IMG/VR virus record: IMGVR_UViG_3300034118_002091
Location: 1-29,424 of that record
Length of the DNA: 29,424 nt
Reading direction: 5' to 3' (one strand)
DNA from: a virus
Taxonomy: Duplodnaviria; Caudoviricetes
Shown here: positions 5,066 through 20,407 of the stretch, piece by piece
Numbering within the stretch: position 1 is the first letter of the stretch
Layout of the letters: the number at the start of each line of letters is the position of its first letter
Position numbers and translations under genes: made by a program
Notes under the pieces: generated by a model
The model's database searches: none
What the model saw: the letters and a program-made list of their open reading frames with translations, nothing else
Told to the model about the DNA's origin: nothing

Positions 5066-5113
5066 GCGTACCGGGCGACACGTGCGCCCGGCTGTTCTGC
5101 CCACTCGATCGCG

Positions 5114-7789
5114 ATGGTGCGCTCGAGTGGGAGTGATGTCCCGCAAGACGACAACCCCCAAAACAACCCAGCTCGCCGCACGCAAACCTCGGGCGGCGGG
5201 CACCTCTCGGCGCCGATGGCGATGAACGACACCACGAGCTCGACGACATCGCGGCAAGGGCAGCTCATCGCGCTGCCGGCGCGCAAGCGCTCGCTGAGCG
5301 AGGCGCATCGCCTCCACCTTGCCGCGTCGGGGCTCACGGACGAGAGCATCGCCATCGGCGGCTTCTACACGGAGCGCGATCCTGGTTCGATCGCCGGCAT
5401 CCTGCATTGGCGCAGCTGGCCGCGCGGGCGCGGCGATGTTCTCGTCATCCCCTTTTCGCTACCGGGCCAGAGCGAGCCCTTCTTCGCGCGCGTGCGCCCC
5501 GACCAGCCGCGCGCGAACGAGAAGACAGGCAAGGTCGTCAAGTACGAGCAGCCCAAGGACACGCCGATCGCTCCCTACTTCCCGGCGCGGGCAATCGCTG
5601 GCGGGTGGCTCGCCGACGTCGCGCGCCCGCTGGTGTTCACCGAGGGCGAGAAGAAGGCGGCGCTGCTCGATCAGCTGGGCTTCGCCGCCGTGGGTGGCAC
5701 CGGCGTCTCGTGTTTCCACGACGCGCAGCACCGCCACGACGAGGGCAGCTACCGCCTGCACGAGCTCATCCGCAAGCACGTCGTCGTGAACGGGCGCACG
5801 TGCTTCATCGCGTTCGACTCGGACGCCAAGAGCAACGACCAGGTGATGCGGTCGGCGGACGTGCTCGCGGCGATGCTCCGGTCCGAAGGCGCATCCGACG
5901 TGCGCTTCGTCGAGATTCCCGAAGGCGATGGCGGAGCCAAGCTCGGCATCGACGACTTCTTCGTGCGCGCCGGCGAGGCGCCCACGCGCGCGCTCTTCGA
6001 GACTGCGGCCTCGGTGACCGGCCAGCTGGGCGGGGACCGCTTCACGCTGCTCACGAGCTTCCGCGCGCTCGCCGGCCTGCCCGTCGACGAAGCGCTCCGC
6101 ATGCCCTCGGGCTACGACCTCGGTCGCGCAGGCGAGCTCACGAGGTGGACCGACGAGGGTAAGGCCGAGGTCGTCGAGCGCGCGCCCATCTTCATCGCGC
6201 GCTTCGTGACCGACCTCTACACCGGCCACGAGAAGGCCGAGCTCGTGTTCCGCCGCGCGGGCGGGTGGCGCACGGTGCAGGTCGAGAGGCGGGCCATCGC
6301 CGACTCACGCATGCTCGTCGCCGAGCTCGCGCCCGTGGGCGGCCCCGTCGACAGCAACACGGCCAGCGACGTCGTGCGGTGGCTGCGTGACTTCGAGGCG
6401 GTGAACGAGCGCCGCATGCCACGCGCCACATCGCTCGGGCGATGTGGGTGGCACCGTGTCGACGAGCACGTGGTGTTCGCGCTCGGCGGCGAGGTGCTTG
6501 CACGCGAAGGCGCGGACCCGAGGGTCGTCGTCGAGCGGGGAGCTGACCGCGCGCGCCTGTGGCGAGGGCTCCATGTCGCGGGGAGCTACGAGGGGCACCT
6601 CGAGGCGCTGCGGCGAGCGTGGGATGCCTCGCCCATCTGCGCGGCCGCCATCTGCGCTGCCCTCGCTGCGCCTCTCCTGCGTCCGCTCGCGGCCCCGCTC
6701 TTCGCAGTGCACCTCGCGGGCGACAGCTCGAGGGGCAAGTCCTCGATGCTCAAGGTCGCCGCGAGCGTCTACGGAGCTCCGCAGGATGAGGAGTGGGTCA
6801 CCTCGTGGAACGCGACCTCAGTGGGCCACGAGGTGCGCGCGTCGCTGCTCTGCGACCTCCCGCTCTGCATCGACGAAGCGGGCGTCGTGGAGCCGAAGGA
6901 ACGGGAGCGCGCGGTCTACATGCTCATCAACGGCGTGGGGCGTGTCCGCGGCGCGAAGGAGGGCGGGCTTCGCGAGGGGCACTCGTGGCGCACCGTCGTG
7001 CTCTCGACGGGCGAGCGCATGCTGGCCGAGCAGGAGGCAGCAACAGGCGCGCAGGTGCGCGTCCTGCAATTCCTCGTGAGCGGGTTCGGCAGGCTCGATG
7101 CGCCGGGTGTCGACGGGCTGCGGCGCGCGTGCGAGGAGCACCACGGACAGGTGGGCATCGAGTGGCTCGGCGCGCTGCTCGAGACCACCGACGAGGAGTG
7201 GGTCGCACACCGGGCGGCGCTCAGGGCACGCACCAAGGCGCTACAGGAACGAGCGCGCGAGCCGCTGCGGGCTCGACAGGCGGGCTTCTTCGCGTTGCTC
7301 GAGCACGTGGAGGCCATCGCTCACTCGGTGCTCGGCATCGGTCGAGAGAACGGGGCCACGATGAGGGCCCTCTTCGAGACGCCTGGCGACGCGGGTGTCG
7401 TCGTGCAGACGGCGGCCGCGCGTGCGCTCGACACGGTGCGCGAGTGGCTCGCGCGCTCCCCGCGCAGCTTCCCGCGCCTCGTGACGAGCTCGTCGGGGCA
7501 GCGCGTGCCCAAGCGCGACGGGCCGCAGAGCGATGTCTGCGGATACGTCGACGATCACGACAACGAGGTCTTGCTCGTGCCCGGCGCGCTGCGGGGCTAC
7601 CTCGGTGAGCGAGGGATGGACGCGAACATCGTCACGCGCGAATGGCGGGCAGCGGGCCTCTTGCGGTGCGACGAGGGCCTGTGCACCACGACCGCGCGCA
7701 TCGACGGCAAGAAGGTCCGCGTGATGGCGCTCGGCGGCGAGCACGCCGGCCTCGAGGAACCCAACACCGACTGGGGTGGCGATGGGTAG
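5114..7789 (+). CDS. Primase-helicase: DUF3854/Toprim-like primase fused to a DUF927 (Cch-like) helicase with C-terminal winged helix; true start possibly 5216 or 5222
   Basis: KYEQP, TEGEKKA, IAFDSD, KLGIDDF (Toprim); GW, Walker A GDSSRGKS, Walker B LCIDE, G.GR.R, W..V+LSTGE, GA.VR (DUF927). Confidence 0.9.
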   Translation: MVRSSGSDVPQDDNPQNNPARRTQTSGGGHLSAPMAMNDTTSSTTSRQGQLIALPARKRSLSEAHRLHLAASGLTDESIAIGGFYTERDPGSIAGILHWRSWPRGRGDVLVIPFSLPGQSEPFFARVRPDQPRANEKTGKVVKYEQPKDTPIAPYFPARAIAGGWLADVARPLVFTEGEKKAALLDQLGFAAVGGTGVSCFHDAQHRHDEGSYRLHELIRKHVVVNGRTCFIAFDSDAKSNDQVMRSADVLAAMLRSEGASDVRFVEIPEGDGGAKLGIDDFFVRAGEAPTRALFETAASVTGQLGGDRFTLLTSFRALAGLPVDEALRMPSGYDLGRAGELTRWTDEGKAEVVERAPIFIARFVTDLYTGHEKAELVFRRAGGWRTVQVERRAIADSRMLVAELAPVGGPVDSNTASDVVRWLRDFEAVNERRMPRATSLGRCGWHRVDEHVVFALGGEVLAREGADPRVVVERGADRARLWRGLHVAGSYEGHLEALRRAWDASPICAAAICAALAAPLLRPLAAPLFAVHLAGDSSRGKSSMLKVAASVYGAPQDEEWVTSWNATSVGHEVRASLLCDLPLCIDEAGVVEPKERERAVYMLINGVGRVRGAKEGGLREGHSWRTVVLSTGERMLAEQEAATGAQVRVLQFLVSGFGRLDAPGVDGLRRACEEHHGQVGIEWLGALLETTDEEWVAHRAALRARTKALQERAREPLRARQAGFFALLEHVEAIAHSVLGIGRENGATMRALFETPGDAGVVVQTAAARALDTVREWLARSPRSFPRLVTSSSGQRVPKRDGPQSDVCGYVDDHDNEVLLVPGALRGYLGERGMDANIVTREWRAAGLLRCDEGLCTTTARIDGKKVRVMALGGEHAGLEEPNTDWGGDG

Positions 7790-8582
7790 CGCGCAGCAGT
7801 CGATCTTCGGCTTCGAGGTGGAACAGGTGGAACGGGCTGGAACGGGTGCGCCCGCGTCTACCCGTTCCACCTCTAAGCGTCCGAAGAGACTGACGAAAAC
7901 CACCGTCGTTCCGTCGATGGAACAGGTGGAACGGCCAGCGGAGACATTCCTACACGCGCGCGTGAGCGAGGGTGATGGGGTCGTGTGCGCGCCCGCGCGC
8001 ATTAGTGATGCAGTGGATACCCGTTCCAGCTGTTCCACCTGTTCCACCGATGCGAAAACCCTTGTGGGACAAGGGAATGAGGTGGAACGGGTGGAAGCGA
8101 CGGAACCCGTTCCACCCCGTTCCACCGAGGAAAACAGCGAGATTCTCTCGCTCGAGGTGCGCTACCTCGCCGACCTGCCCGTCCCGTGCACGCTCACGCT
8201 CGACGTGCGCGGCGTGGGCGAGGTGCTGGTCTCGACGTCGCGCACGCGCGTCGAGCTCGAGCGCAGGGCTGGGCGCCCCGTGTGGGCGCCCCTGGGCTTC
8301 GAGTTGGCCGCCTATGCCGTGCAGGAGGACCGAGCACGACCCGAGGACTGGCGAGGCTGGTGCGCGCGCCTGCGGGCGCGTGGGTGGCGTCTCGACGAGC
8401 GGGAGGCGTTCGGTGGGGCGGCGGGCGTGGAGGACGCGTGGAGGGCCGCCCGGCGCACGGGCGCGCCCCAGGAGCCACGCATCGCGCTGGGGCGCCTCCT
8501 GCGCCTCGTGGGGGGGCGCCTGGTGTCCTGCGAGGTCGAGGGCGCACCGAGCGCCCAGGAGAGCGCGGAGGTGGCGTGGTGA
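7782..8582 (+). CDS. Hypothetical protein; 5' part overlies the iteron array, start uncertain
   Basis: Open frame overlapping the helicase stop; the portion after about 8150 reads as a natural protein (LADLPVPCTLTLDVRGVGEVLVSTSR...). Confidence 0.55.
   Translation: MGSAQQSIFGFEVEQVERAGTGAPASTRSTSKRPKRLTKTTVVPSMEQVERPAETFLHARVSEGDGVVCAPARISDAVDTRSSCSTCSTDAKTLVGQGNEVERVEATEPVPPRSTEENSEILSLEVRYLADLPVPCTLTLDVRGVGEVLVSTSRTRVELERRAGRPVWAPLGFELAAYAVQEDRARPEDWRGWCARLRARGWRLDEREAFGGAAGVEDAWRAARRTGAPQEPRIALGRLLRLVGGRLVSCEVEGAPSAQESAEVAW
7816..8127. repeat. Bidirectional iteron array (core GGTGGAAC), probable replication origin
   Basis: Nine perfect GGTGGAAC/GTTCCACC octamers plus several variants in alternating-orientation clusters, immediately after the primase-helicase. 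Confidence 0.8.
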
Positions 8583-8603
8583 TGGCGATGCTACACCTCG
8601 CGC

Positions 8604-8897
8604 ATGCAGACGACGCGATGGGCGGTGTTGGCGTGTCTCGTGCTCGCGGGATGCGGGCAGACAAGCGCGCCCGCAGACGTGGCTGGCTGGGGCAGCGATG
8701 CGCCGGGGTGGTGGGTCGCGACGGGCGAACGACCTCGATGCGGAGCGACGCCGACGTGCGAGAGGGGCCGGCCAGGGTGCATGCGCCCCGACGGCACGAC
8801 GAGCGACCGTGTGCGCTGCTACGACGGCCCAGGCGGCCCGCAGGCGCTGTGTCAGCGGATGGGCGACGTCGAGGCCTGTCTCGTGCCCTTCGAGTAG
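8604..8897 (+). CDS. Small Cys-rich lipoprotein
   Basis: MQTTRWAVLACLVLAG-C signal peptide with LAGC lipobox; six further Cys. Confidence 0.8.
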   Translation: MQTTRWAVLACLVLAGCGQTSAPADVAGWGSDAPGWWVATGERPRCGATPTCERGRPGCMRPDGTTSDRVRCYDGPGGPQALCQRMGDVEACLVPFE

Positions 8898-8961
8898 AGA
8901 TTCATGCAGAGGGGGGGTACCTGGGTGCGGCAACCCCCTCGCCACCCAATCCGTTGCACCA

Positions 8962-8975
8962 TGACACCGATGTCA
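8962..8975. promoter_or_regulatory. Palindromic site TGACA-N4-TGTCA upstream of the Zn-finger/HTH gene
   Basis: Perfect inverted repeat 2 bp after TTGCAC (8954-8959); same geometry as TGACG-N4-CGTCA at 10950 and 26303. Confidence 0.55.
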
Positions 8976-8985
8976 GGAGCGTCCC

Positions 8986-9447
8986 GTGCCGTCGCTGAGC
9001 GGCATCCGGTGCGTGTACTGCGGCCGTCCTGGGCGCCTCGCGGTCTGCCGCGGGTGCAGCGTGCGCCGCAGGCCCACCGAGCTCATGACGTGGCTGAAGG
9101 CGCACGGGGTCACGCAGGCCGACCTCGCGCGGCAGGTCGGGTGCTCGTGGAGGACGATCCTCCGCGCGACGCAAGGCCACGCGCTGACGGGCGGGCCGGC
9201 CGTGCGCGTGTCTCGCATCACAGGCATCTCGCTCGAGGTGCTCGTGCTGGGCCAGGTGGAGGAGGTGCAGCGTGTCAGGTCGGAAGATGAGTCGGCTGTG
9301 GCTCGAGCGAGCCGAGGCGCTGCTCGATGCAGCGGCGGAGGAGCTCACGCGCAAGATGGCCGAGATGACGCCGGAGCAGCTCGTCGCGGTCATCTCCGCG
9401 GTGGGCCAGCGCGTGACGACGCACCGGGCGGTCGTCGCGGAGCCTGA
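8986..9447 (+). CDS. Zn-finger + XRE HTH transcriptional regulator (candidate late regulator)
   Basis: CVYC...CRGC followed by WLKAHGVTQADLARQVGCSWRTILRATQG......AVRVSRITGISLEVL; AGGAG upstream; the C-terminal tail overlaps the next gene. Confidence 0.78.
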   Translation: MPSLSGIRCVYCGRPGRLAVCRGCSVRRRPTELMTWLKAHGVTQADLARQVGCSWRTILRATQGHALTGGPAVRVSRITGISLEVLVLGQVEEVQRVRSEDESAVARASRGAARCSGGGAHAQDGRDDAGAARRGHLRGGPARDDAPGGRRGA

Positions 9448-9598
9448 CGGTGAGCCTGACGGGCCTACGGGAGATCGAGGAGATCGCGCGCCAGCAAAAC
9501 GCCGCGCGAAGAGCTCGCGACCGAAGAGCGCGCGCAGCGCGGCCCGAGGCCGTCGCGCGGCGGCTCCCGCCGCTGATGCGGTGGATTCCGAAGGCTAG
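9272..9598 (+). CDS. Helical protein, putative terminase small subunit
   Basis: Strong GGAGGAGG RBS before GTG 9272; helical LERAEALLDAAAEELTRKMAEMTPEQLVAVISAVG; lies just before and overlaps terL; function from position only. Confidence 0.5.
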   Translation: MSGRKMSRLWLERAEALLDAAAEELTRKMAEMTPEQLVAVISAVGQRVTTHRAVVAEPDGEPDGPTGDRGDRAPAKRRAKSSRPKSARSAARGRRAAAPAADAVDSEG

Positions 9599-10952
9599 CC
9601 CACACCTCGCCGCGCCCGTGCACCTTGAGCCGCTCGTGCGCGAGCTCGAGCGCGTGCTCCGCGGCGAGACGATCGAGATCACCGTCTCGGTCCCTCCGCG
9701 CCACGGCAAGACGACCACGATCGTGCACTGGATCGTGTGGCTGCTGGCGCAGCTTCCGGACCTGCAGGTGCTCTACTGCTCGGCCGGCGCCAAGCTCGCG
9801 GTGAAGCAGACGCGAGCCATGCGCGCCCTCGCGCGCCGTATCGGCCTTCCACTCGGCGAGGTGCAAACGGCGAGCGAGTGGACCACGGCGAGCGGTGGGC
9901 GCGTGCGCGCGTGCGGCATCACGGGCCCGCCTGTCGGCGACGGCTACCACGTAATCGTCGTCGACGACCCGCACCGCTCGCGTAAGGACGCGGAGAGCGC
10001 GACGACGCGCGAGGGCGTGGTCACCGCGTACCGCGACGACATCTACACGCGCCAGCTCCCTCGAGGCACCTCGCACGTCATCGTGCACACGCGATGGCAC
10101 GAGGCCGACCTGATCGGCGTGATGACGCGCCCGCGTGGCGACGAGGACGACGGCCCGCAGCCGTTCGCGAAGATCAACCTCCCCGCGCTCGACGCCGAGG
10201 ATCGCGCGCTCGCGCCGTGGCTGTGGTCCGCGGAGCGACTCCGGCGCATCCGAGCGCGCCTCGGTCCGTACGGCTGGGCGTCGCTCTACCAGGGCTCACC
10301 GATGCCGCGCGGCGGCAACCTCTTCGGCCCCGCGACGTGGGCCGACGACGAGCCGATCGAGGCGACGCACGCGGGAGGCGTCGACCTCGCGCGTACAGCG
10401 AAGCGACGCAGCGACCCGCAGGCGTCGATCATCGTCTCGCGCGACGCGGACACGGGCATCATCTACGTGGTCGACATCGAGCACGAGCGCGAGCTCCTCA
10501 CCGACCGCGAGGTCGACGGCGAGATCGAGCCGGGGTTCATCCGGCGCATCCACCGTCAGCAGCGCGCCTACCGCGGCGCGCGCTTCCGCATGTACACGGG
10601 CCGCGACGAGAGCTCCATCCTCGACCTCTTCGCGATGCACCGTGACTACCCGGTGATCGTGGACGCCATCGTCGCGCGCGACGAGAAGTGGGAGCGCGCG
10701 CAGCCCACGGCGGCGCTGTGGAACACGGGCCGGATCCGCGTGCTCCGATCGTGTCGTCACGCCGAGGCGCTCGAGCGACAGGCGCGCGCGTTCACAGGCC
10801 TCGATGGCGGCGAGGACGACCTGATCGACGCGCTCGTCGCAGCCGTCGACGAGGTCGCGGTGGCCGAGACGCACGCGGAGGCGATCACGCCGCCCGCGGT
10901 GAGGGCGCAGACGAGGCCGGTTGCCTCGAGCATGCGCAAGCGGTGGACCTGA
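9450..10952 (+). CDS. terL: Terminase large subunit
   Basis: Walker A VPPRHGKTT, Walker B VIVVDDP, HTRWHEADL, SLYQGSP, nuclease GVDLA and DDLIDA. Confidence 0.96.
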   Translation: MSLTGLREIEEIARQQNAARRARDRRARAARPEAVARRLPPLMRWIPKASPHLAAPVHLEPLVRELERVLRGETIEITVSVPPRHGKTTTIVHWIVWLLAQLPDLQVLYCSAGAKLAVKQTRAMRALARRIGLPLGEVQTASEWTTASGGRVRACGITGPPVGDGYHVIVVDDPHRSRKDAESATTREGVVTAYRDDIYTRQLPRGTSHVIVHTRWHEADLIGVMTRPRGDEDDGPQPFAKINLPALDAEDRALAPWLWSAERLRRIRARLGPYGWASLYQGSPMPRGGNLFGPATWADDEPIEATHAGGVDLARTAKRRSDPQASIIVSRDADTGIIYVVDIEHERELLTDREVDGEIEPGFIRRIHRQQRAYRGARFRMYTGRDESSILDLFAMHRDYPVIVDAIVARDEKWERAQPTAALWNTGRIRVLRSCRHAEALERQARAFTGLDGGEDDLIDALVAAVDEVAVAETHAEAITPPAVRAQTRPVASSMRKRWT

Positions 10953-11001
10953 CGCGCGCGTCACATGGCGCGCGCACGCGTACACAACCTAGCTTCGGCG
11001 C
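10946..11001 (+). promoter_or_regulatory. Putative late promoter for the head operon with activator palindrome
   Basis: GACCTGACG-CGCG-CGTCACAT (19/21 identical to 26299-26319); TAGCTT -10-like hexamer, then CGGCGC and the portal GTG. Confidence 0.65.
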
Positions 11002-12270
11002 GTGGCCTCGGCCTCGCTCAGAGCTCTTCCGGGTGGACGCGCAGAGTCGACGCGCGGACGCAGCGTCACGCCCACGACGCGCGACCGCGGCCCGATGGAG
11101 ACGCGCTACGCGGCGGTGCAGCCCGAGCAGCTCGCGCAGATCCAGCTGGGCCTCGAGCGCGGCGAGCTCCGCGACTGGGCCGACCTCTGCGATCGGATGC
11201 TGCGCCGCGATCCGGACATCCTCGCGACGTACGAGAGTCGACTCTCGGTCATCTCCGGCGCGGAACTGATCGTCGAAGAGGGCGTGCCCACGGGCGACCC
11301 GCAGCGCGACGCGCTCCTCGGCGTCGGCGCGGCCTTCACCGACGCATGGCTCCGCTCGCTCCCCGTCTCGCGCTACGCGCACGAGAGCCTCGACGGCATC
11401 GGCAAGGGGCTCGGCGTGCACGAGGTCATCTGGTCGCCGACCTCGATCGGACTGGTCCCCGTCGGGCTCGAGTGGCTGCACCTCCGGCGCTTCTGCTACG
11501 GGCCCGACTGGCGCCCGCGCATCGTCGACATGGGCTCGGCCTACGACACGCGAGGCTTTGAACTCGAGCCCGATCGCTTCGTGGTCCACGAACCGCGCGC
11601 GCTCCCCGGCTACCCCGCGGGCGGCGTCCTGCGCGCCGTGATGTGGCTCTTCTTGATCAAGAGCTGGGCGCTCCAGTTCTGGATCTCGGGCGCGGAGTCG
11701 TTCGCGTGGCCGCTTCGCATCGCGACCGTTCGTCGCGGCGGAGACGACGCTGCGCGCGCCCGCGCGAAGCAGTTCCTCGAAGACCTCTCGGCCGACCACG
11801 CCGCGGTGCTCGATGAGGGCACCGTGTTCGAGCTCAAGGAAACCACCGTCAAGGATGGCAACGTTTGGGCGAACCTCGTCGCGGAGTGCAACCGCGGGAT
11901 CGCGAAGGCGCTCCTCGGCATGACCGACCTCGCCGAGCCCACGCGCGTGGGCGCGTACGCAGCGGTCGAGACGCGCAAGGGCGCGACGGTCGACGCACGC
12001 GTGCTGAAAGACGAGCGTGCGCTCGCGATGACGTGGGAGCGCGACCTCGTCGAGCCCGCGCTCCGGCTGAACGCCGACCTGTGGGGCGGCATCGTGCCGC
12101 CGACTCCGCGCCTGCGATGGTCGATCGCCGCTTCGCGTTCCGCGCTCGACGCGCTCGCGGTGGACGCGATGACGGTCGACGAGGTGCGCGCGCGCCAGGG
12201 GCTTGCCCCGCGCGGTGGCGTCGAGGGCGCGATGCTGATGCGCGACTTCAAGATCGGCGGTGCGCGATGA
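11002..12270 (+). CDS. Portal protein, DUF935 / Mu gp29-like (alternative start ATG 11095)
   Basis: RDPDI....ESR...+, D.IGKG.GV.EVIW, +F+VH, GVLRAV.WLFLIK......W....E.FA.P+R+, N..IAKA+LG, DE.R...GL; follows terL. Confidence 0.9.
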   Translation: MASASLRALPGGRAESTRGRSVTPTTRDRGPMETRYAAVQPEQLAQIQLGLERGELRDWADLCDRMLRRDPDILATYESRLSVISGAELIVEEGVPTGDPQRDALLGVGAAFTDAWLRSLPVSRYAHESLDGIGKGLGVHEVIWSPTSIGLVPVGLEWLHLRRFCYGPDWRPRIVDMGSAYDTRGFELEPDRFVVHEPRALPGYPAGGVLRAVMWLFLIKSWALQFWISGAESFAWPLRIATVRRGGDDAARARAKQFLEDLSADHAAVLDEGTVFELKETTVKDGNVWANLVAECNRGIAKALLGMTDLAEPTRVGAYAAVETRKGATVDARVLKDERALAMTWERDLVEPALRLNADLWGGIVPPTPRLRWSIAASRSALDALAVDAMTVDEVRARQGLAPRGGVEGAMLMRDFKIGGAR

Positions 12271-13346
12271 CGACGCCGACGATCGCGGAGCTCGACGCGC
12301 TGGTCGCGGACGTGCCGCCGAAGACCAAGATCATGCCCGACGGCGTGAGGCGCTGGATCCCGGCCGCGGTGCCGCATGGCGCGGGCGTCGAGCAGGTCGA
12401 CGCGCAGTTCCTCGCGGACGCCGCCCTCCGGCTGAACACCGACACCGTGTCGATCCCCATCGACGGCGGTTCGTTCTTCAGCGTCGCCCACGAAACGGCG
12501 CCGTTCGATGCGATCGGCTGGGCGCATCGCGCCGCGGTCTTCGAGGAGAAGCTCTACCTCGAGGCCGAGGTGCTCCCGATGGTCAACGACGCGATCGAGG
12601 CCGGCCGCGTCGCGTTCTCGTCGATCGACGCCGACTTCAAGACCGACGAGTCCGGCGCGTACGTGCCCGGTTCGGCGCTCCTCGTGACGCACGCGCTCAC
12701 GAACACGCCGCGCGACCGCAAGCAGGAGCCGATGCAGGCGATCCACGCCGCGCACAAGGGCGCGCGCGTCCGCTTCACGACGCGAGCACGTCTCGCGCAG
12801 GAGAACGACATGAGCAAGAAGAGCGAGACGAAGGCCGAGGCCAGCGCGCAGGCCGAGGAGACCAAGACGCAGGCCGCCGACGCGCCCGCGATGACGCTCG
12901 AGGAGGCGATGGCCAAGATCGCCGAGCTCGAGAGCAAGCTCGCGGCGATGGAGGCCACCTCGGCGGAGATGGCCGCGCAGCTCTCGGCGACCGTCGAGAA
13001 GAGCGAGGCCGAGCAGGTCAAGGCGCAGGCCGAGCGCAAGGAGAGCGCATGCGTCGCGCTCGTCGACGAGGCGATCCGCTGCGGCCAGGTCGCGCCCGCG
13101 TCGCGCGAGAAGTTCCTCGCGCTGGCGCGCCGCGACATCGAGACGACGCGCGCGAGCATCGAGCAGATCCCGAAGCGCGCGCGCCCGATCACGACCGCGG
13201 CCGAGGCGAGCCGCTCGGAGACGAGCACGAAGAAGGCCTCCGACTGGTCGGAGGCCGAGCAGCACCTCGCGGCAAGCCTCCGCGCCGGTGGCCTGAGCGA
13301 GAAGAGCATCGAGGCAGCGATCGCGCGCAAGCGCGGGGAGCGGTGA
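12267..13346 (+). CDS. Mu I-like prohead protease / scaffold
   Basis: ATGA overlap with portal; IPID, AIGW, FSS, LLVTHALTNTP, then a coiled-coil region and LVDEAI..G.+APA. Confidence 0.85.
   Translation: MTTPTIAELDALVADVPPKTKIMPDGVRRWIPAAVPHGAGVEQVDAQFLADAALRLNTDTVSIPIDGGSFFSVAHETAPFDAIGWAHRAAVFEEKLYLEAEVLPMVNDAIEAGRVAFSSIDADFKTDESGAYVPGSALLVTHALTNTPRDRKQEPMQAIHAAHKGARVRFTTRARLAQENDMSKKSETKAEASAQAEETKTQAADAPAMTLEEAMAKIAELESKLAAMEATSAEMAAQLSATVEKSEAEQVKAQAERKESACVALVDEAIRCGQVAPASREKFLALARRDIETTRASIEQIPKRARPITTAAEASRSETSTKKASDWSEAEQHLAASLRAGGLSEKSIEAAIARKRGER
12810..13346 (+). CDS. Nested in-frame scaffolding protein (Mu Z-like)
   Basis: AGGAG at 12799-12803 before in-frame ATG 12810, at the protease/coiled-coil boundary. 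Confidence 0.65.
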   Translation: MSKKSETKAEASAQAEETKTQAADAPAMTLEEAMAKIAELESKLAAMEATSAEMAAQLSATVEKSEAEQVKAQAERKESACVALVDEAIRCGQVAPASREKFLALARRDIETTRASIEQIPKRARPITTAAEASRSETSTKKASDWSEAEQHLAASLRAGGLSEKSIEAAIARKRGER

Positions 13347-13350
13347 AGAC

Positions 13351-13782
13351 ATGGCGGCCCTGGCAGCAGACAAGAAGCGGATCGTCCGCAACATCAACGG
13401 CATGAAGGAGGCGGAGGTCCTCCTCGCCGACTCCCAGACCGTCTACGAGGGCGCGATCATCATGCGCAACTCGTCGGGCGATCCCGTCGTCGGCGCGGAC
13501 ACAGCGTCGTGCGTCGGGATGGGCGTCGCGAGCGAAGCGGTCACGAGCGGCAGCTCGAACACGACGAGGTTCGTCAAGCTCCAGTACGGGCACGAGGAGT
13601 GGTTCGCAACGGCGGGAACGTTCACGAAGGCCTCGATCGGCGCGAACGTCACGATCTCGGACGATCAGACCGTCGCGCTCGCCGCGACGACGACCAACGA
13701 CGTTCTCTTCGGGATGCTCGTGCAGCTCGAGACCATCAACGGCACCCCTGGCGCGTGGATCCGCGTCGCCGAGTTCGCGTGA
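13351..13782 (+). CDS. Head decoration / capsid cement protein
   Basis: 143-aa beta-rich protein (MAALAADK...VYEGAI+...G+A.E...IG..V.+SDDQTV) between protease and capsid. Confidence 0.75.
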   Translation: MAALAADKKRIVRNINGMKEAEVLLADSQTVYEGAIIMRNSSGDPVVGADTASCVGMGVASEAVTSGSSNTTRFVKLQYGHEEWFATAGTFTKASIGANVTISDDQTVALAATTTNDVLFGMLVQLETINGTPGAWIRVAEFA

Positions 13783-13812
13783 TCGTCTGATCGCGCCTGA
13801 AAGGACCTGACC

Positions 13813-14778
13813 ATGTCAGTCACGGATCGCAGCATCATCGACAACGCTTCGACGACCTTCCGCGAGATCGCGGTAGAGATCTTCGGAGGAAACACCCCGC
13901 CGGGCGCGTGGCAGGCGTTCGCAACCATGCTCCCGACGGACTCCAAGGTCGTCGAACACGACGTGCTCGAGGCGATGCCCGTCGCACGCAAGTGGGTCGG
14001 CGCGAAGCAGTACAAGGACGTCCGCGCCGCGAGCACCACGCTCACGATCGCGCCGTACGAGGCGAGCTTCAAGATCAAGCGCCTCGACCTCCTCGCGGAC
14101 CGCACCGGCATCACCGGCCGACGTATGCGCGAGTGGCTCTCGGACACGGCGTACCTCTACGACGACCAGTGCCACCAGGTGCTCTTCGCGAACCCGACCG
14201 GCTACGACGGCGTGGCGCTCTTCAACGCGTCGCACCCGCGTGGCCCCGCAGGCGGCACGCAGTCGAACACCACGACAAGCGCGCTCTCGCACACCACGTT
14301 CGAGACCGCGATGCAGACGGGCGCGTCGCTGCGCGACGAGGAGGGGCGCCCCCTCATGATCTCTTACGACACGCTGATCGTCGGCCCGAAGCTCGCCGCG
14401 CTCGCGCGCGAGATCACCGGTTCCAACGAGCGCGTGATCGCGGTCGCGAACGACGGCCTCGAGGCCGGCACGCGCGTGGCGGCGGCGACGGGCCCCAACG
14501 CTCGAGGCCGTCAGGTCTTCTCGGGAGGCTCCGTGGACGTCATCGTCGACCCGCGCATGCCGCTCGGCGGCACGTACGACGACTACTGGTACCTCCTCGA
14601 CACGACGCGCGGTCCGAAGCCGATCGCCGGCTACGAGTTCCGTTCGCCCGAGGCGATCACGGCCGACCAGATGACCAGCGAGGGACGCTTCGAGAACGAC
14701 GAGTTCCGCTACTCGATCGAGTTCGACATCGTCTTCGGCGCCGGTGTGTGGCAGGTCGCCTACGCGGGGATTCTGTGA
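13813..14778 (+). CDS. Major capsid protein, Mu gpT-like
   Basis: AAGGA RBS; MP..RKWVG, YEAS..+KR.D+..D..G, GYDGVALFNASHP, L+D.EGRPL.I....L+VGP.L, WYLLDT....KP. Confidence 0.93.
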   Translation: MSVTDRSIIDNASTTFREIAVEIFGGNTPPGAWQAFATMLPTDSKVVEHDVLEAMPVARKWVGAKQYKDVRAASTTLTIAPYEASFKIKRLDLLADRTGITGRRMREWLSDTAYLYDDQCHQVLFANPTGYDGVALFNASHPRGPAGGTQSNTTTSALSHTTFETAMQTGASLRDEEGRPLMISYDTLIVGPKLAALAREITGSNERVIAVANDGLEAGTRVAAATGPNARGRQVFSGGSVDVIVDPRMPLGGTYDDYWYLLDTTRGPKPIAGYEFRSPEAITADQMTSEGRFENDEFRYSIEFDIVFGAGVWQVAYAGIL

Positions 14779-15182
14779 TGCAGGGGCCCCTCGAGACCAT
14801 CGCGCGCGCGCTTCGGCAGAGCCCGCAGGCGTCGGAGCCCAAGATCCGCATGCGGATCGAGAGCACAACGCACAACTACAACCTCGGCGGTGTCGTCGTG
14901 CTCTTCGGCGTCGGGGAGTACGACGTGCCCGCGTCCGAGGCGGCGAGCATCGACGAGCTCGTCGAGGACGCGGCGCTCGTGGCCGAGGCCAAGAAGCGGC
15001 TCGCCCGCTTCGAGCAGGCACTCGCCCGCAAGGAGCGTGGAGAGGCCGTCTCGGACACGGCGCTACCGCGCTACCCGCTCTCGCTCTCGGCGGTGTTCAC
15101 CGAGCTGCACAGCCGCGGCATGCGGCCGTTCGTGTCGGCGTCGCGCGTCGACACGCAGACCAGCAAGCCCGGCAAGGGCTGA
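14778..15182 (+). CDS. Hypothetical head-associated protein
   Basis: TGATG coupling to capsid; 134 aa with normal codon usage. Confidence 0.7.
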   Translation: MQGPLETIARALRQSPQASEPKIRMRIESTTHNYNLGGVVVLFGVGEYDVPASEAASIDELVEDAALVAEAKKRLARFEQALARKERGEAVSDTALPRYPLSLSAVFTELHSRGMRPFVSASRVDTQTSKPGKG

Positions 15183-15183
15183 C

Positions 15184-15211
15184 ACGGCGGGCCCTTCGGG
15201 GCCCCGCTGTT
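15184..15211 (+). terminator. C(UUCG)G-capped hairpin after the head genes, weak terminator or processing stem
   Basis: GCGGGCCC-TTCG-GGGCCCCGC followed by only TGTT. Confidence 0.55.
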
Positions 15212-15283
15212 GCGACGTAGAGGAGCAGCGTCCTCGCCGCGCTCATGCCGCGGAGATCGCAGGTGCGAGTCCTGCCGTCGCGA
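15211..15283 (+). tRNA. Atypical tRNA-Met(CAT), initiator-like cloverleaf (possible pseudo-tRNA or tRNA-like element)
   Basis: Acceptor TGCGACG/CGTCGCG+A, D stem GAGG/CCTC, anticodon stem CCGCG/CGCGG with loop CT-CAT-GC, variable AGATC, T stem GCAGG/CCTGC; 73 nt; non-canonical loops; no CCA. Confidence 0.75.
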
Positions 15284-15284
15284 T

Positions 15285-15755
15285 GTGGCGTACATCACTC
15301 AGACGATCGTCGAGGCCGACCTCGGCGCGGACGTGATCGCAAGGCTCACGCGCGGCTCGAGCGCGAAGCTCGCGCGGTTCATCGCCGCGGCCGAGGCGCG
15401 CGTCGCGTCGGCGCTGCAGATCGGCGGCTACACGGCCGCGGTGCCGTCGACCGTCTACGCGTCGAACGCGAGCGACTGCCCCTCGGAGATCACCGAGCTC
15501 GCGTGTCGCGTCTTCAAGCGCATCGCGTACGAGCGCGGCGCCGACCTCTCCATCCCCGAAGACCAGATCAAGGCGCTCGACGAAGAGCTCGCCGAGCTGC
15601 GCGACGGACGCACCGAGATCAAGGGCCTCGCGCGCTCGGTGAGCCGCGCGCCGGGCGGCATCACGGCGACCGACGGCGACCCCGCGAGCGCCTCGACGAG
15701 TGACCCGCGGTGGCGCCCGCAGGTCTTCGCGCGCTCGCGCATGACGGGGTTCTGA
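15285..15755 (+). CDS. Head-tail adaptor, Mu gp36 / DUF1320-like
   Basis: MAYIT...+...LG...+..LT, I..A.A.V, P..+..LAC.+, L.ELRDG, C-terminal VF.R..M.GF. Confidence 0.82.
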   Translation: MAYITQTIVEADLGADVIARLTRGSSAKLARFIAAAEARVASALQIGGYTAAVPSTVYASNASDCPSEITELACRVFKRIAYERGADLSIPEDQIKALDEELAELRDGRTEIKGLARSVSRAPGGITATDGDPASASTSDPRWRPQVFARSRMTGF

Positions 15756-16222
15756 TGGGCGTCGTTGTGGAGGGCCTCGAGGAGCTCCGAGCGGACATCG
15801 CGGAGGCCGCGGCGATGGCGGCCGACCCGCGTCCGGCGCTCGAGGAGTGGGCCGCGGACCTTGAGGCGCTGGTCGACCGCGCCTTCGCGTCGCAGACCAC
15901 ACCCGAGGGTCGTCCGTGGGCGCCGAGGCGCATGACGACGCGCTCTCGCGTCGGCGGACCCGAGCATCCGCGTCGACGTGTGCCCGGACGACCTCTCGGC
16001 GTCGACTCGGGCGCAATGCGAGCGTCGATCGACGTTCAGGTCGCGCCGCGCGCGGTCGTGCTTGACGTGGGCGCCCAGCACGCGTCGTTCTTCACGCGCG
16101 GCACGCGCTACCAGCCCGCCCGACCGTTCGTTCCGACGGCCGACGAGGGCGCGAGCGCGTCGGCGCTCGACGATCTCGCCGAGACGCTGGCCGACTACGC
16201 CACGGAGGCGCTCCGTGGCTGA
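15755..16222 (+). CDS. Virion morphogenesis / tail completion protein, Mu G-like
   Basis: F..QT.PEG.PWAP, DSG.MR.SI, GT...PARPF+; TGATG coupling. Confidence 0.85.
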   Translation: MGVVVEGLEELRADIAEAAAMAADPRPALEEWAADLEALVDRAFASQTTPEGRPWAPRRMTTRSRVGGPEHPRRRVPGRPLGVDSGAMRASIDVQVAPRAVVLDVGAQHASFFTRGTRYQPARPFVPTADEGASASALDDLAETLADYATEALRG

Positions 16223-16730
16223 CTTCGCGCCCGCCATCACCGCGATCCGCGAGGCGCTGCTCGGCATCGTGGGCGCCGTGCGCGCTGTGGACGAAGGCGA
16301 CCTCGTGGAAGGCGCCTACGAGCACACGCCCGAGCACGAAGCGGCGCGCGCGCTGCGCGGCCCGTCGTTCGAGGTCGAGATTACGAGCGCGAGCCGCGCG
16401 AAGGACCACCCCGGCGAGCACTCGAACGCCGTCCTCCTCGATCTCACGGTGCAGGTCCGCACCGTGTGGGGCACGGAGCACGAGCTCCTCGACGACGAGC
16501 GCGCCCGAGCGCGCGCCGAGGCGCTCGGCCTCCTCGAGAAGAGCCGCGCCGCGCTCATGCGCGCCGGCAATCTCACCTCGACGAGCGCCGACGAGGCGAC
16601 CGGGCTCGTCTCGGGGTGCCTCCACCGACTGCTCGAGCACCGACTCGAGCGCGCGGACTGGCGAGGGCGTCGGCTCTCGTACGTGAGCCGCTACACGACC
16701 GTCTACCAGGCCACGCAGACCGCAGGGTGA
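16215..16730 (+). CDS. Putative tail terminator / neck protein
   Basis: GGAGG RBS, 171 aa, directly before the major tail gene; function from position. Confidence 0.6.
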   Translation: MADFAPAITAIREALLGIVGAVRAVDEGDLVEGAYEHTPEHEAARALRGPSFEVEITSASRAKDHPGEHSNAVLLDLTVQVRTVWGTEHELLDDERARARAEALGLLEKSRAALMRAGNLTSTSADEATGLVSGCLHRLLEHRLERADWRGRRLSYVSRYTTVYQATQTAG

Positions 16731-16733
16731 CCC

Positions 16734-17993
16734 ATGAGCTACGAGATCAACACGCTCCGCTCCCTCCTCGCCTACGTCGAGCCCGCGGGCTCGTACGCGC
16801 TCGACAACAGCGGCACGATCGGTGACTTCCTCGCGGTCCCGATCACCGAGGGATTCATGTCGAGCGCGCCCATGCGCGACATGCTCGATCCGATGCTCTC
16901 TCAGGCGCGCCTCGACGGACGCGCTGAGCGCGTGATCGGCAAGCGATCCGCCGCGATGCAGCTCGCGATGCTCCTCGCGTCGCACGGCGTCGACATGGTG
17001 GGCAACGAGACGCAGCCGGCGTCGACCACGTGGGCTCTCCGGCGCCTGCTCACGGCGACGATGGGCGGCGTGTCGCTCACGGGCACCGAGGCCGCCGCGA
17101 CGACGGTGCAGGCCGGCACGAGCACGAGCGTCGTCAACGTCTCGACCGGCCACGGCGATCGGTGGATCGGGAACAGGGTCATCGCGTGCCAGACGGTGAG
17201 CGGATCGACCGCGCTCGAGGCGCGCGAGGTACTCTCGGTGTCGGGCGACGCGGTTACCGTGAAAGAGGCCTTCTCGGCGACCCCCGTGACCGGCACGCAG
17301 GTGCGCGGCGGCGTGACGTTCCACCCGACCGAGGACCCCGACACGTCGCTCCAGTTCATCGCGCAGGGCCGCGAGACCGCCGATCACTTCCTCATGCGCG
17401 GGATGCAGGGTGGCTTTCAGATCGAAGCCAAGCCCGGCCAGCTCGCGAAGATCACCTTCGACCTCAAGGGCGCCGCGACGACGAAGCTCTCGGATCACTC
17501 CGGCATCACGGTCCCGAGCTTCTCCAACTGGTCGCCGGTCGCCGTCGTTGCGAGCGAGCTCACCGTGCCCACGGTCGGCAGCACGACGCGCGCGTGGGTC
17601 GCCGCGAGCGACATCTCGCTCACGCTCGGCCTCGCGTACGAGCCCGTCACCGGCTACTCGCTCACGGGCGAGACGATCATCCGCATGCGCCGACAGCGCC
17701 CGCGCGACGGCGTGCTCGCGCGGTTGACGTTCACGGCGCCGCTCGAGGACTCGACCTGGATCGACCACCGCGACAACCGCACCGACCTTGCGGCCTTCTG
17801 GCAGATCGGCTCGGCAGGCGGCGGCGGGTGGCTCATCTCGATCCCGACGTGCCAGGTCACCGACGTGCGCCTCGGGCCGAGCGCGTCGGGCCTCTCCGGC
17901 CAGATCGTGACGCTCGAGGGCCGCCTCGACGCGTCGGCCGCAGCTTCGACGACGGAGCTCTCGTACGCGGCGCTTCGCCTCCACGCCTTCTGA
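16734..17993 (+). CDS. Major tail tube protein with an inserted beta domain
   Basis: Thr/Ser/Gly-rich beta protein; L...E...Y, G+..GFQIEA.PGQLAKITFDLKG; precedes chaperone and tape measure; no sheath gene. Confidence 0.78.
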   Translation: MSYEINTLRSLLAYVEPAGSYALDNSGTIGDFLAVPITEGFMSSAPMRDMLDPMLSQARLDGRAERVIGKRSAAMQLAMLLASHGVDMVGNETQPASTTWALRRLLTATMGGVSLTGTEAAATTVQAGTSTSVVNVSTGHGDRWIGNRVIACQTVSGSTALEAREVLSVSGDAVTVKEAFSATPVTGTQVRGGVTFHPTEDPDTSLQFIAQGRETADHFLMRGMQGGFQIEAKPGQLAKITFDLKGAATTKLSDHSGITVPSFSNWSPVAVVASELTVPTVGSTTRAWVAASDISLTLGLAYEPVTGYSLTGETIIRMRRQRPRDGVLARLTFTAPLEDSTWIDHRDNRTDLAAFWQIGSAGGGGWLISIPTCQVTDVRLGPSASGLSGQIVTLEGRLDASAAASTTELSYAALRLHAF

Positions 17994-18001
17994 GGAGCCC
18001 C

Positions 18002-18523
18002 ATGGACCGCTTCATCCGACTCTACGATCCCGCGATCGACTGGACGTCCGAGACAGGCACGCCGGCCGACACGTGGCCCATCACGCGCGACGAAAGCAAG
18101 CTCGTCTTGCTCCCCGGCCGCACGCCGGTCGTGTTCCACTCGGTGCGCTTGAGCCGCAAGGCCTACGCGTGGGCCATGTCGGCGCCCGACGAGCACGAGC
18201 GGTGCTTCCGCGCCTTCCGTGCCGGCGTGCGACGCGTGGACCTCGCCTCGGGCCCGTGGACGCCCGCGGGCACCGAGACGCGCGACTTCTTGGCGATGAC
18301 CGAGGCCGAGGCCGACACGTTCGGGATCGCCGACCACCAGGAGATCGGGGGGCTCGTGCTCGAGCGCGCGATCCTCCCTACCGACTGCGGGGGAGGCTAC
18401 TCGGTGCGGCCTTCCTCGCGTCTCGTGTGGGCCGCCCAGCAGCTCAGCTCCCTCTCTGCGGTGCAGAGCCGGGGCGAGCGTGCGCCGACGCCGAGGGAGC
18501 CCGCGGCACCCTCGGAGGGCTGA
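18002..18523 (+). CDS. Putative tail assembly chaperone (lambda G position)
   Basis: GAGGAG RBS; between tail tube and tape measure. Confidence 0.7.
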   Translation: MDRFIRLYDPAIDWTSETGTPADTWPITRDESKLVLLPGRTPVVFHSVRLSRKAYAWAMSAPDEHERCFRAFRAGVRRVDLASGPWTPAGTETRDFLAMTEAEADTFGIADHQEIGGLVLERAILPTDCGGGYSVRPSSRLVWAAQQLSSLSAVQSRGERAPTPREPAAPSEG

Positions 18524-18900
18524 GCGAGGATGCGCGCCGCGCTCGCCACACGCTCCGGCAGGCCTACCGCTGCGGATGCGAGGGCGAGCGGTGGCCAGAG
18601 GGCCGCACGCAAGGGCCCGTGGTGGGCGCGAGCGCGCTCGGGGCTCTGGCTGCGGTCCGGCAGGTCTGCGGCGGCGAGCCGCCCGAGTGTCCGTGGAGGT
18701 CGTGGAGCGATCCGGAGGTAGCTGCGGTGATCGACGCGTGGAGCGCATACGAGAGGCACCAGCTCGCGGCAGTGGCCGGCGATGACCCGCCGCACTGGCT
18801 CGTCGAGGCCGTGCTCGTGTTCGACCGCGCGATCGGCGCGGCGCGCGCCGACGTGTCGGAGATGGAGCGACGAGCCCGCGAGGTGACCCGTGGCCGGTGA
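18460..18900 (+). CDS. Putative frameshift-expressed tail chaperone extension (lambda T position); 5' boundary approximate
   Basis: The -1 frame relative to 18002..18523 is open from 18073 to 18900; protein-like C-terminus (CPWRSWSDPEV...PHWLVEAVLVFD); no convincing own start or RBS. Confidence 0.55.
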   Translation, partial: GAEPGRACADAEGARGTLGGLSEDARRARHTLRQAYRCGCEGERWPEGRTQGPVVGASALGALAAVRQVCGGEPPECPWRSWSDPEVAAVIDAWSAYERHQLAAVAGDDPPHWLVEAVLVFDRAIGAARADVSEMERRAREVTRGR

Positions 18901-20407
18901 GATTCAGCGGCGCGTCCGCATCGTCTACGAGGTCGAGGGCGTCGAGGACGCCGCGGAAGCGCAGGCGGCCTTCGGTGATGCAGCGGAAGAGGCGGGCCGG
19001 AAGCTCGCGTCGCAGGGCGACGTCGCGCGCGAGTCCGAGCAGGTCTACCAGCGGCAGCAGCAAGCGCTGAGCGACCTGACCGGCGCGATGGGCGGGATCG
19101 CCTCGATGCTCGGCAGCGAATCCGAGCTCGGATCCGTGATCGGTCGCATGGCGCAGGGCGGCCAGGTCGGTCGGCAGCTGGGCGCTGCGCTTGGCGCGCT
19201 GCCGGGCCCGATTGGCCAGATGGCCGGCACGCTCGGAGCGCTCGGAGGAACCATCGTCGGGACGGCGGTTCCGGCGATCTCTGCGCTCTTCGATGCGCTG
19301 ACGCCCGTGGTGCCCGCGATCCGAGAGGTCACCGACGAGTCGCAGCGCAGCGCGCAGGCCGCGATCGAGATGGGCGACGCTTTCGCGGGCGCGGGCGACC
19401 GTATGCGCGACTTCCTCGACAGCGTCTCGACGGCGGGGCGCGCCCGCGCGCTCGCCGACACGAACGCGCAGATCACCGAGCTCGCCGACCGCATCGAGCA
19501 GATCGGCCGGTCCGGCTCTGCGATGGAGCGCCTCGATCTCCCAGGCCTGCGCGACCGACTCGCCGGCATGATGGCCGAGTCGGAGGGCGAGCGACAGCAG
19601 CTCGAGGGCGAGGGCGCCTTCGGTGGCGGTCGGCGACGCGGCGGAGGTCGCGGGCGACGCGAGAGCGCGTGGAGCAAGCTCGAGGAGCTCATGGGCCGCG
19701 CGGGCGGCGGCAACGATGCGATCGGCTTCGCCGCTGGCCTCGACCCGGTCGATGTGAGTGGTCGGCCGAGCGACTTCGACGTCCAGGTCGCCGGCCGTCA
19801 GCGTCCCGGAGGCCCGGGCAGCGGTCTCCGCGCGGCAGCTGCGGAGCGCGAGCAGATGCAGGCGCTCGAGCGGCTCCGCGACAAGCAGAAGGAGGCGCAC
19901 GAGGAGCAGATGGCGCGCATTCAGCAGCAGGTCGACGCGTGGACGTCGGCCGGCGAGCGCATCGGAGGCGTCATCGCGGGCGCGTTCAAGACGGCGATCC
20001 AGGGGCAGGAAGACTTCGGCGTCGCGGTGATCAAGGGCTTCAAGTCCATCGCGGTCGAGTTCGGCGGCCAGATGATCGCGGAGGGCGTCGGCGCGCTCTT
20101 CACCGCGATCGGCAACACGATCTTGAACCCGCCCGCCGCAGCGACGAAGGCAGCCGAGGGCGCGGGCAAGATCGCGCTCGGCGTCGGCCTCGGCGCGGCC
20201 GGCGCGGCGATCCCGGTGCCCTCCGCGGGCAGCGCGCAGGCCAAGCCTCCGCGGCTCGGGCCCGCGTCGTCCGGCGAGGGCGGCGGCGCGAGCGTCGTCT
20301 ACAACCTGAACGCGCCCGCGGTCGTCACGGGCACGCGCGCGGAGCTCGGGCGCGAGATGGCGCGCACCATCCGCCAGAGCTCGATGCGCTTCGGGAGGGC
20401 CGCATGA
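18890..20407 (+). CDS. Tape measure protein (short, 505 aa)
   Basis: GAGGTG RBS; Ala/Gly-rich helical protein with hydrophobic segments and C-terminal SVVYNLNAP. Confidence 0.85.
   Translation: MAGEIQRRVRIVYEVEGVEDAAEAQAAFGDAAEEAGRKLASQGDVARESEQVYQRQQQALSDLTGAMGGIASMLGSESELGSVIGRMAQGGQVGRQLGAALGALPGPIGQMAGTLGALGGTIVGTAVPAISALFDALTPVVPAIREVTDESQRSAQAAIEMGDAFAGAGDRMRDFLDSVSTAGRARALADTNAQITELADRIEQIGRSGSAMERLDLPGLRDRLAGMMAESEGERQQLEGEGAFGGGRRRGGGRGRRESAWSKLEELMGRAGGGNDAIGFAAGLDPVDVSGRPSDFDVQVAGRQRPGGPGSGLRAAAAEREQMQALERLRDKQKEAHEEQMARIQQQVDAWTSAGERIGGVIAGAFKTAIQGQEDFGVAVIKGFKSIAVEFGGQMIAEGVGALFTAIGNTILNPPAAATKAAEGAGKIALGVGLGAAGAAIPVPSAGSAQAKPPRLGPASSGEGGGASVVYNLNAPAVVTGTRAELGREMARTIRQSSMRFGRAA

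Follow-up and report, generated by a model that had tools for sequence, protein, structure and literature searches.

tRNA-like elements at the capsid-adaptor junction of gpT-type phages as candidate RNA processing sites

Plant mitochondrial t-elements lie beside coding sequences and fold like tRNAs, with a T arm that is conserved; RNase Z or RNase P cuts at their ends, which are also 5' or 3' ends of mRNAs, and they comprise real tRNAs as well as reduced forms (Forner et al. 2007, PMC1920247). The parts of a tRNA that are read by RNase P and RNase Z are the acceptor stem, the T arm and the elbow; in the elbow, base 18 is intercalated and paired to base 55, and G19-C56 provides the surface on which RNase P reads the tRNA (PMC4810234). 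Both mRNAs and phage RNAs are known as targets of RNase P (PMC11143913). The locus described here is like the t-elements in that a tRNA-like acceptor and T-arm fold is found at a gene boundary, and differs from them in that the boundary lies in a phage late operon and the cutting is one that we infer. In the part of the open-licence PubMed Central and bioRxiv literature that was covered, no paper describing punctuation by tRNA-like elements downstream of a phage capsid gene was found. An RNA motif called Mu-gpT-DE takes its name from the same capsid gene family, and we take it to lie downstream of that gene. The motif carries accession RF03012 (bioRxiv 10.1101/2020.02.04.933952) and is not mentioned in the main text of its source paper (PMC5737381). 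The present element was rejected as a copy of it: the best score, 12 bits where the cut-off is 49, was reached at other places.

The tRNA-like locus and its surroundings

The window (the whole stretch of DNA that was analysed, a 29.4-kb virus record of about 70% GC) contains a Mu-like head module with genes for a terminase (9450), a portal protein (11002), a protease, the gpT capsid protein and a neck-1 protein (Table 1). A different kind of module is found at 4133-7789, where a DUF2303 gene is followed by a DUF3854/DUF927 primase-helicase gene, with HTH and CII-like regulators upstream; this is a non-transposing replication module joined to the Mu-like head. The host of the phage is likely myxobacterial, since a related capsid family takes its name from Sandaracinus and Polyangiaceae records. 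The small late gene that overlaps the capsid stop had no match in Pfam and PHROG searches; we take its product to be gp35-like from position alone, assuming the Mu gene order. The gene on the 3' side of the tRNA-like locus had been called a neck gene, but is a Mu gp36-like adaptor gene (no match in a direct Pfam search), neck-1 being the next gene; in relatives, its homologs start at the corresponding residue. The cloverleaf is the sole tRNA in a 42.7-kb record of the same phage, the completeness of which is estimated at 59%.

Table 1. Positions of the features around the capsid-adaptor junction of the window
Feature	Position	Strand	Basis
Major capsid protein gene, Mu gpT family	13813..14778	+	PF10124, E 5.5e-32; phrog_371, E 7.8e-37
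Small late gene, start overlapping the capsid stop via TGATG	14778..15182	+	Open frame; GC3 0.94; tblastn homologs in relatives
GC-rich hairpin with UUCG cap, adjoining the cloverleaf and lacking a U tract	15184..15210	+	-20.1 kcal/mol, z -3.65, 0/200 shuffles
tRNA-fMet-derived cloverleaf, 73 nt, anticodon CAU, U1.G72, A73, no encoded CCA	15211..15283	+	ARAGORN; Rfam RF00005
D-loop A18-G19, with A18 in place of G18	15227..15228	+	Sequence; co-variation with G55
Anticodon arm with C30-G40 (tRNA-fMet M1 swap) and strain-private G37/C38	15237..15253	+	Sequence; M1 effect in PMC11497404
T loop UGCGAGU, G55-C56, UGNRA-type T-loop	15264..15270	+	Sequence; YGNRA loops in bioRxiv 10.1101/2022.12.26.521914
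Mu gp36-like head-tail adaptor gene, GTG start	15285..15755	+	Atlas score 0.96 to clusters in which 25-62% of members carry PF07030
Neck-1 / tail completion gene	15710..16222	+	phrog_26, E 7.4e-16; PF05069

The preliminary description had read the sequence itself entirely correctly: the cloverleaf with its U1.G72 and A11-U24 pairs, CAU, A73 and T loop, the D loop without GG, G37/C38, GCG at positions 29-31 of the anticodon stem, the absence of an encoded CCA, the hairpin upstream and the GTG downstream. Its expectation of low or pseudogene-like tRNA scores proved wrong: ARAGORN calls a tRNA-Met(cat) and Rfam RF00005 is matched with 47.5 bits (gathering score 29, E 2.3e-7). The minimum-energy fold is the cloverleaf, with an energy that is ordinary for DNA of 70% GC (z -1.24; 23 of 200 shuffles as good), and the window contains no second T arm of this kind. 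By its score the cloverleaf belongs to the tRNA family. It shares CAU, A11-U24 and A73 with canonical initiators, yet it is not one of them, because two defining features are missing: the three G-C pairs 29-41/30-40/31-39 (C30-G40 is present) and the G18/U55 elbow (A18/G55 is present). The A18-G19 D loop and the UGCRA T loop make it instead a member of an A18/G55 variant of CAU tRNAs, and this combination is retained in relatives. The 1:72 pair, a U1.G72 wobble in the window, is C1/U72 in two phages of a second capsid clade (loci L343 and L344, see below); the E. coli initiator has C1/A72 (PMC11497404). An open frame across the cloverleaf (TTG at 15210) was dismissed as a chance frame (GC3 0.60 versus 0.92-0.95 in genes).

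The upstream hairpin was rejected as an intrinsic terminator: it lacks a U tract, and none of the 4 terminator sites found in 8500-19000 falls at 15184-15215. Different hairpins occupy the same place in L343, L344 and a third phage of that clade, L346. The adaptor GTG has no Shine-Dalgarno match, its anti-SD duplex reaching only -2.2 kcal/mol; equally weak matches are found at three other predicted late-gene starts of the window (11002, 18073 and 21917). Measured from the discriminator, the adaptor start codon follows after 0 nt in L346, 1 in the window, 7 in L343 and 10 in L344, and no Shine-Dalgarno sequence is seen in any of them. Near-identical contigs in three freshwater RNA-library runs of one study cover 13300-15132, and none is found beyond, up to 16300. 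These are assembled contigs, which carry no information on RNA ends and in which DNA may be present (a fourth run is probably DNA); the pattern fits a step-down at the cloverleaf and is not counted as support.

Elements behind the capsid gene in related phages

A wastewater relative of the phage (two samples of one study, probably DNA contigs) differs at six positions of the tRNA: A37, A38, C47, A57 and the pair 51-63, which changes in a compensatory manner from A51-U63 to G-C. Its upstream hairpin has two pairing-preserving changes, and A18, G55, CAU, C30-G40, the hairpin and the GTG junction are all retained. Such compensatory changes support the earlier suggestion of selection on shape, and we consider the cloverleaf to be real and under selection. 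G37/C38, which had been listed among the rewritten features, is private to the strain (A37/A38 in the wastewater relative, A37/C38 in L343 and in L125, a locus of the window's own clade); it is not conserved and was ruled out as a selected trait. The C30-G40 pair is found in only 2 of the 80 distinct tRNAs of the G55 class, both of them at the capsid-adaptor junction, and in its place the pair 31-39 is flipped in L344 and L140. In E. coli this M1 swap lowers initiation 20-fold in vivo (PMC11497404). Each of the six full-length copies (those of the window, the wastewater relative, L343, L344, L125 and L140) retains CAU, and the first four of these have A73, A11-U24 and a weak 1:72 pair in common as well.

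Within the capsid clade of the window, 13 of the 33 distinct loci have a T-arm element at most 1 kb downstream of the stop codon of the capsid gene (many of these 13 are near relatives of each other), as compared to a background of 0.016 per kb elsewhere in the same loci (2 in 128 kb); the other 20 contain no element, and in 5 of them the downstream sequence is shorter than 800 nt. The positive loci are those of the window's phage, L125, L140, L145 (truncated), L127 and eight phages with an anticodon-less element of 50-60 nt (hereafter mini). L140 has a full CAU cloverleaf with the G18/U55 elbow. In L127 (3956-4000) a minimal element of about 45 nt, consisting of an acceptor stem, GG and a T arm, is located 13 nt past the capsid stop. 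A window-type 5' half is combined with a canonical U55 3' half and two acceptor mismatches in L125 (3108-3183), where the contig ends 3 nt later at low coverage, so that this copy is either misassembled or recombinant and its hybrid end is unreliable. The stretch between capsid stop and tRNA-like element has also received other genes: L140 contains a GIY-YIG homing endonuclease gene there (1705-2598), similar starts are seen in L141, L145 and L159, and a gene is inserted at this place in L140, L141, L145, L159 and L332, all of them members of one clade.

The minis have an AG D loop and a G55 T loop and retain the acceptor stem, with only 4-5 pairs, and the T arm, the anticodon loop being absent. 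As unannotated RNAs of some 60 nt they occur behind the gpT capsid gene in L139 (3022-3105), L141-L151, L159 and L325-L339 (13 distinct versions in 27 loci), where they are followed by a conserved hairpin and a Shine-Dalgarno sequence; in L127, too, the element is followed by a Shine-Dalgarno sequence. All 15 matches of the mini pattern in IMG/VR lie behind a gpT capsid gene, 14 of them at a distance of 37-86 nt and one at 886 nt. In an alignment of seven related minis, with a structure drawn by hand from the same sequences, 147 of 147 cells are paired and 3 pairs are changed on both sides, a result that none of 500 shuffles equalled. ARAGORN and Rfam did not detect the minis, and a covariance model built from them recovered only L145 (E 0.002) among 90 sources. 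Because this model did not match the window's cloverleaf, the minis are not shown to be its homologs in sequence. A weak match to the model upstream of the capsid gene in L163 (1764-1832, E 1.1) is probably due to chance.

In the second clade, whose capsid protein is 25% identical to that of the window over the matched part, an element was found within 250 nt in 3 of the 59 distinct junctions that the best 80 of 153 confirmed loci provided (expectation 0.006 per junction); the three positives form one tight group and the other 56 junctions have no element. The L343 tRNA is identical to that of the window in 70 of 73 bases, although no significant match was found between the adaptors and the capsids are as distant as stated. 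The near identity of the two tRNA copies points to the transfer of a cassette. L344 has a full CAU cloverleaf with A18/G55. In L346, the capsid of which is 89% identical to that of L343, the full CAU cloverleaf of these sister phages is replaced by an anticodon-less acceptor and T-arm fold with a canonical elbow and an inserted GAAA hairpin (2884-2975, including a UUCG hairpin); it is flanked by the UUCG hairpin and by a TTG to which the adaptor start of L343 aligns, and its T-arm fold is a manual reading from which the minimum-energy fold differs. Both clades thus contain full-length CAU copies alongside anticodon-less minis. On a quick tree of 38 hand-picked capsid rows the elements appear at four separate places, the full-length L140 groups as the sister of L145 plus the minis, and the label 'none' needs 6 changes that are forced by the starred branches. 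We infer the direction of change to be from full to mini. The element is not required for assembly, as most members of the family are devoid of it (20/33 and 56/59), including L161 (capsid 74% identical), where, as in L135, the two genes are coupled directly via TGATG or TGATTCATG.

Co-variation of positions 18 and 55

The loops had been described as rewritten, and a tRNA mimic had been one of the models. Their changes are not independent of each other, however: A18 and G55 represent a single co-varying swap for G18/U55. A G55 pattern matched around 140 stretches in IMG/VR, 120 of which were fetched, and the D loop reads AG in all 80 distinct complete copies (one truncated locus was excluded), with stems intact throughout. 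A scan with positions 18 and 55 left open and restricted to short D loops (about 1,500 stretches estimated, 120 fetched) yielded 104 distinct viral CAU tRNAs, namely 21 with A18/G55, 81 with G18/U55 and 2 with G18/C55. Mixed cases, with only A18 or only G55, were not among them: G55 is present in 21/21 A18 tRNAs versus 0/83 G18 tRNAs (Fisher p 2e-22, ignoring relatedness). Typical members of the A18/G55 class have G30-C40 (77/80), A37/A38 (75/80) and an encoded CCA (64/80), and often reside in tRNA arrays. Given the encoded CCA, and given that 42 of the 120 fetched loci hold at least five tRNAs, the swap is a common variant of phage initiator tRNAs and no mark of mimicry. It is nearly confined to the initiator type, because among 245 distinct non-Met neighbours only 2 have G55 (U55 214, C55 1, unparsed 28); a phage tRNA-Pro(CGG) with A18 and G55 (L005, 1708-1783) indicates that the limit is not strict.

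The A18/G55 combination is absent from the four cultured look-alikes that were compared (pf16, 44RR2.8t, pMLP1 and RcXuper), no plasmid match spanned 80% of the query, and the G55 pattern was found in 0 of 61 genomes and in none of the 150 matches listed, with 88 more outside the listing, for 301 genomes of one phylum. The notion that the swap is phage-specific was dropped, the cellular survey spanning that one phylum only. In this phylum the initiator tRNAs (L293-L322 and the cellular listing) nearly all have A29-U41, not G29-C41, and A29-U41 in the phage copies is therefore nothing out of the ordinary. The portion of open-licence PubMed Central and bioRxiv that was covered yielded no paper about A18/G55 tRNAs, and term searches of the available text of PMC7912444 and PMC6602477 gave no mention of A18 or G55. 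In the YGNRA T-loop of riboswitches, the G at position 2 is bonded along its sugar edge by an intercalated A (bioRxiv 10.1101/2022.12.26.521914). Taken together with the co-variation, this geometry suggests that A18/G55 makes an alternative contact of the riboswitch type, and that the elbow is predicted to survive. As the perfect co-variation shows, G18/U55, which is supposed to be a universal contact, has a common natural alternative.

Processing, cargo and other readings of the element

We propose that the cloverleaf is a cis-acting RNase P/Z processing site at the head/adaptor junction, similar to a t-element, and consider the chances of this proposal to be evenly balanced. The cloverleaf derives from a phage initiator-type tRNA, and its place is the boundary at which the head genes end and the gene for the head-tail adaptor follows. 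Cleavage by RNase P at 15211 would leave a capsid message that ends in the upstream hairpin, the predicted 3' protector of the head message, and cleavage after 15283 by a 3' nuclease, for which the RNase Z type is proposed because no CCA is encoded, would release a neck/tail message with a single base ahead of the adaptor GTG, which would then be translated without a leader. The predicted outcome is a head mRNA that is more stable than the neck/tail mRNA. Phage particles contain many capsid subunits and few connector subunits, and output should fall at this boundary. For this function the acceptor stem, T arm and elbow would suffice, and the anticodon arm could for that reason drift or be lost; these same three parts are the common denominator of the junction elements. 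Processing in cis is favoured because tRNA-like sequences of varied kind, with either elbow and with or without an anticodon, recur at one boundary, and because of the RNase P precedents and the t-elements. The tRNA-mimic processing signal of the preliminary description is in this respect strengthened by the anticodon-less elements in sister phages, but loses the loop changes as its hallmark. Several points count against the proposal. Anticodon-less forms exist at the junction, as independence of the anticodon would have it, yet CAU is kept in every full-length copy, which selection purely on shape would not need; the leaderless step is not general, as the minis and L127 carry Shine-Dalgarno sequences; the acceptor stems of the minis are short, at 4-5 pairs; and efficient RNase P processing of a T4 precursor prefers CCA (PMC11143913). 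Moreover, cutting alone would not prove what is selected, since any tRNA in a polycistron would be excised.

A fuller scenario, which we put forward tentatively and with chances somewhat short of even, is that gpT phages (Mu-like and probably myxobacterial) have, more than once, placed tRNA genes downstream of the capsid gene and reduced them, in a series from full length to 50-60 nt, to anticodon-less RNase P/Z punctuation, the cut of which would set the dosage of head versus neck/tail products and make the adaptor leaderless, while the elbow toggles between G18/U55 and A18/G55.

The full-length copies could alternatively be cargo: a tRNA-Met that is processed, provided with CCA and charged, and that serves as a nuclease-resistant tRNA, expressed behind the capsid gene, where transcription is strongest, with the cut in the mRNA as a side effect. 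The initiator features shared by the window, the wastewater relative, L343 and L344 agree with such a role, and the A18/G55 class, with its intact stems and tRNA-rich loci, looks functional. The changes concentrate in the anticodon arm, the region in which VapC cuts tRNA-fMet (PMC4705866), and nuclease escape by phage tRNA variants is possible (PMC11464382; PMC10264068). For full-length copies the cargo role is plausible, and it may coexist with processing in cis. As the explanation of the junction it is rather unlikely, given that it does not account for the anticodon-less versions, that C30-G40 weakens initiation, that G37/C38 is not conserved and that this is the only tRNA in the phage record, incomplete as that is estimated to be. 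What the minis retain is precisely the acceptor stem, the T arm and the elbow; Cas12a3 binds the first two of these (PMC12851939). They would thus also be suited to a decoy role, in which a stable and uncharged RNA of tRNA shape titrates proteins of host defence that grip the acceptor stem and T arm, and high output may be expected behind a capsid gene. An agent acting in trans needs no fixed place, however, whereas all 15 mini matches lie at this junction, the flanking hairpins suit mRNA ends, and the analysis turned up no defence target, all of which makes a decoy improbable.

There are two further readings. If the element stayed uncut, its tRNA shape might recruit or park a ribosome at an adaptor start that lacks a Shine-Dalgarno sequence, after the insertion had broken the coupling of stop and start. 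In L346, the window, L343 and L344 the starts follow closely on the discriminator, in line with this, but their spacing varies and the minis and L127 have a Shine-Dalgarno sequence of their own. A perfect cloverleaf with unpaired flanks is, moreover, expected to be an RNase P substrate, and we regard an uncut element as quite improbable. Most improbable of all is a neutral, decaying tRNA gene or the remnant of an integration site. The distribution is patchy, with no element in the closest relative L161, and L125 has a hybrid-like copy with a canonical 3' half, as decay or integration might leave behind; however, L125 may be misassembled, the tRNAs of the window and L343 have remained nearly identical while capsids and adaptors diverged, and the compensatory nature of the changes largely refutes this reading. 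Integration here would split the late operon, and an attachment site was ruled out by its position, the hybrid end of L125 being unreliable.

The novelty lies in a tRNA-like element that recurs, and shrinks, where the capsid and connector genes meet; the oddities of the loops are a common natural variant. If processing in cis, the reading that we prefer, is true, tRNA punctuation as known from mitochondria would be found inside a bacteriophage structural operon, and some lone phage tRNA genes would, apart from supplying codons and evading nucleases, have a third role. With a series from full to mini at one junction, the question why phages carry tRNAs becomes directly testable. It also calls for caution with ARAGORN calls in late operons, which may be cis signals, and with the minis, which escape both ARAGORN and Rfam.

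Compared to initiator tRNA-fMet, the element shares CAU, A11-U24 and A73, and its U1.G72 wobble may count as the weak 1:72 pair of that tRNA; its closest cultured scaffolds are those of Aeromonas phage 44RR2.8t, Pseudomonas phage pf16 and Micromonospora phage pMLP1, the first two of which also have the G13-C22/U21 D arm in common with the window's cloverleaf. These cultured initiators have G18/U55 and three G-C pairs where the window has A18/G55 and C30-G40, and unlike them the window copy has no encoded CCA and stands alone inside a structural operon. With the A18/G55 variant tRNAs of uncultured phages it shares the coupled swap, but their typical G30-C40, A37/A38 and CCA are unlike the window. 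The YGNRA T-loop of the FMN and cobalamin riboswitches offers the sugar edge of its position-2 G to an intercalating A, as G55 and A18 would do (bioRxiv 10.1101/2022.12.26.521914); in the riboswitches this is known from structures, and its use in a tRNA elbow is suggested here by co-variation. The non-proteogenic tRNA-Gly of Staphylococcus aureus, which has roles outside translation, is described as lacking G18-G19 and U55; it loses G19 and is charged for cell-wall synthesis (PMC13443448), whereas the window keeps G19/C56, and its A18 and G55 co-vary.
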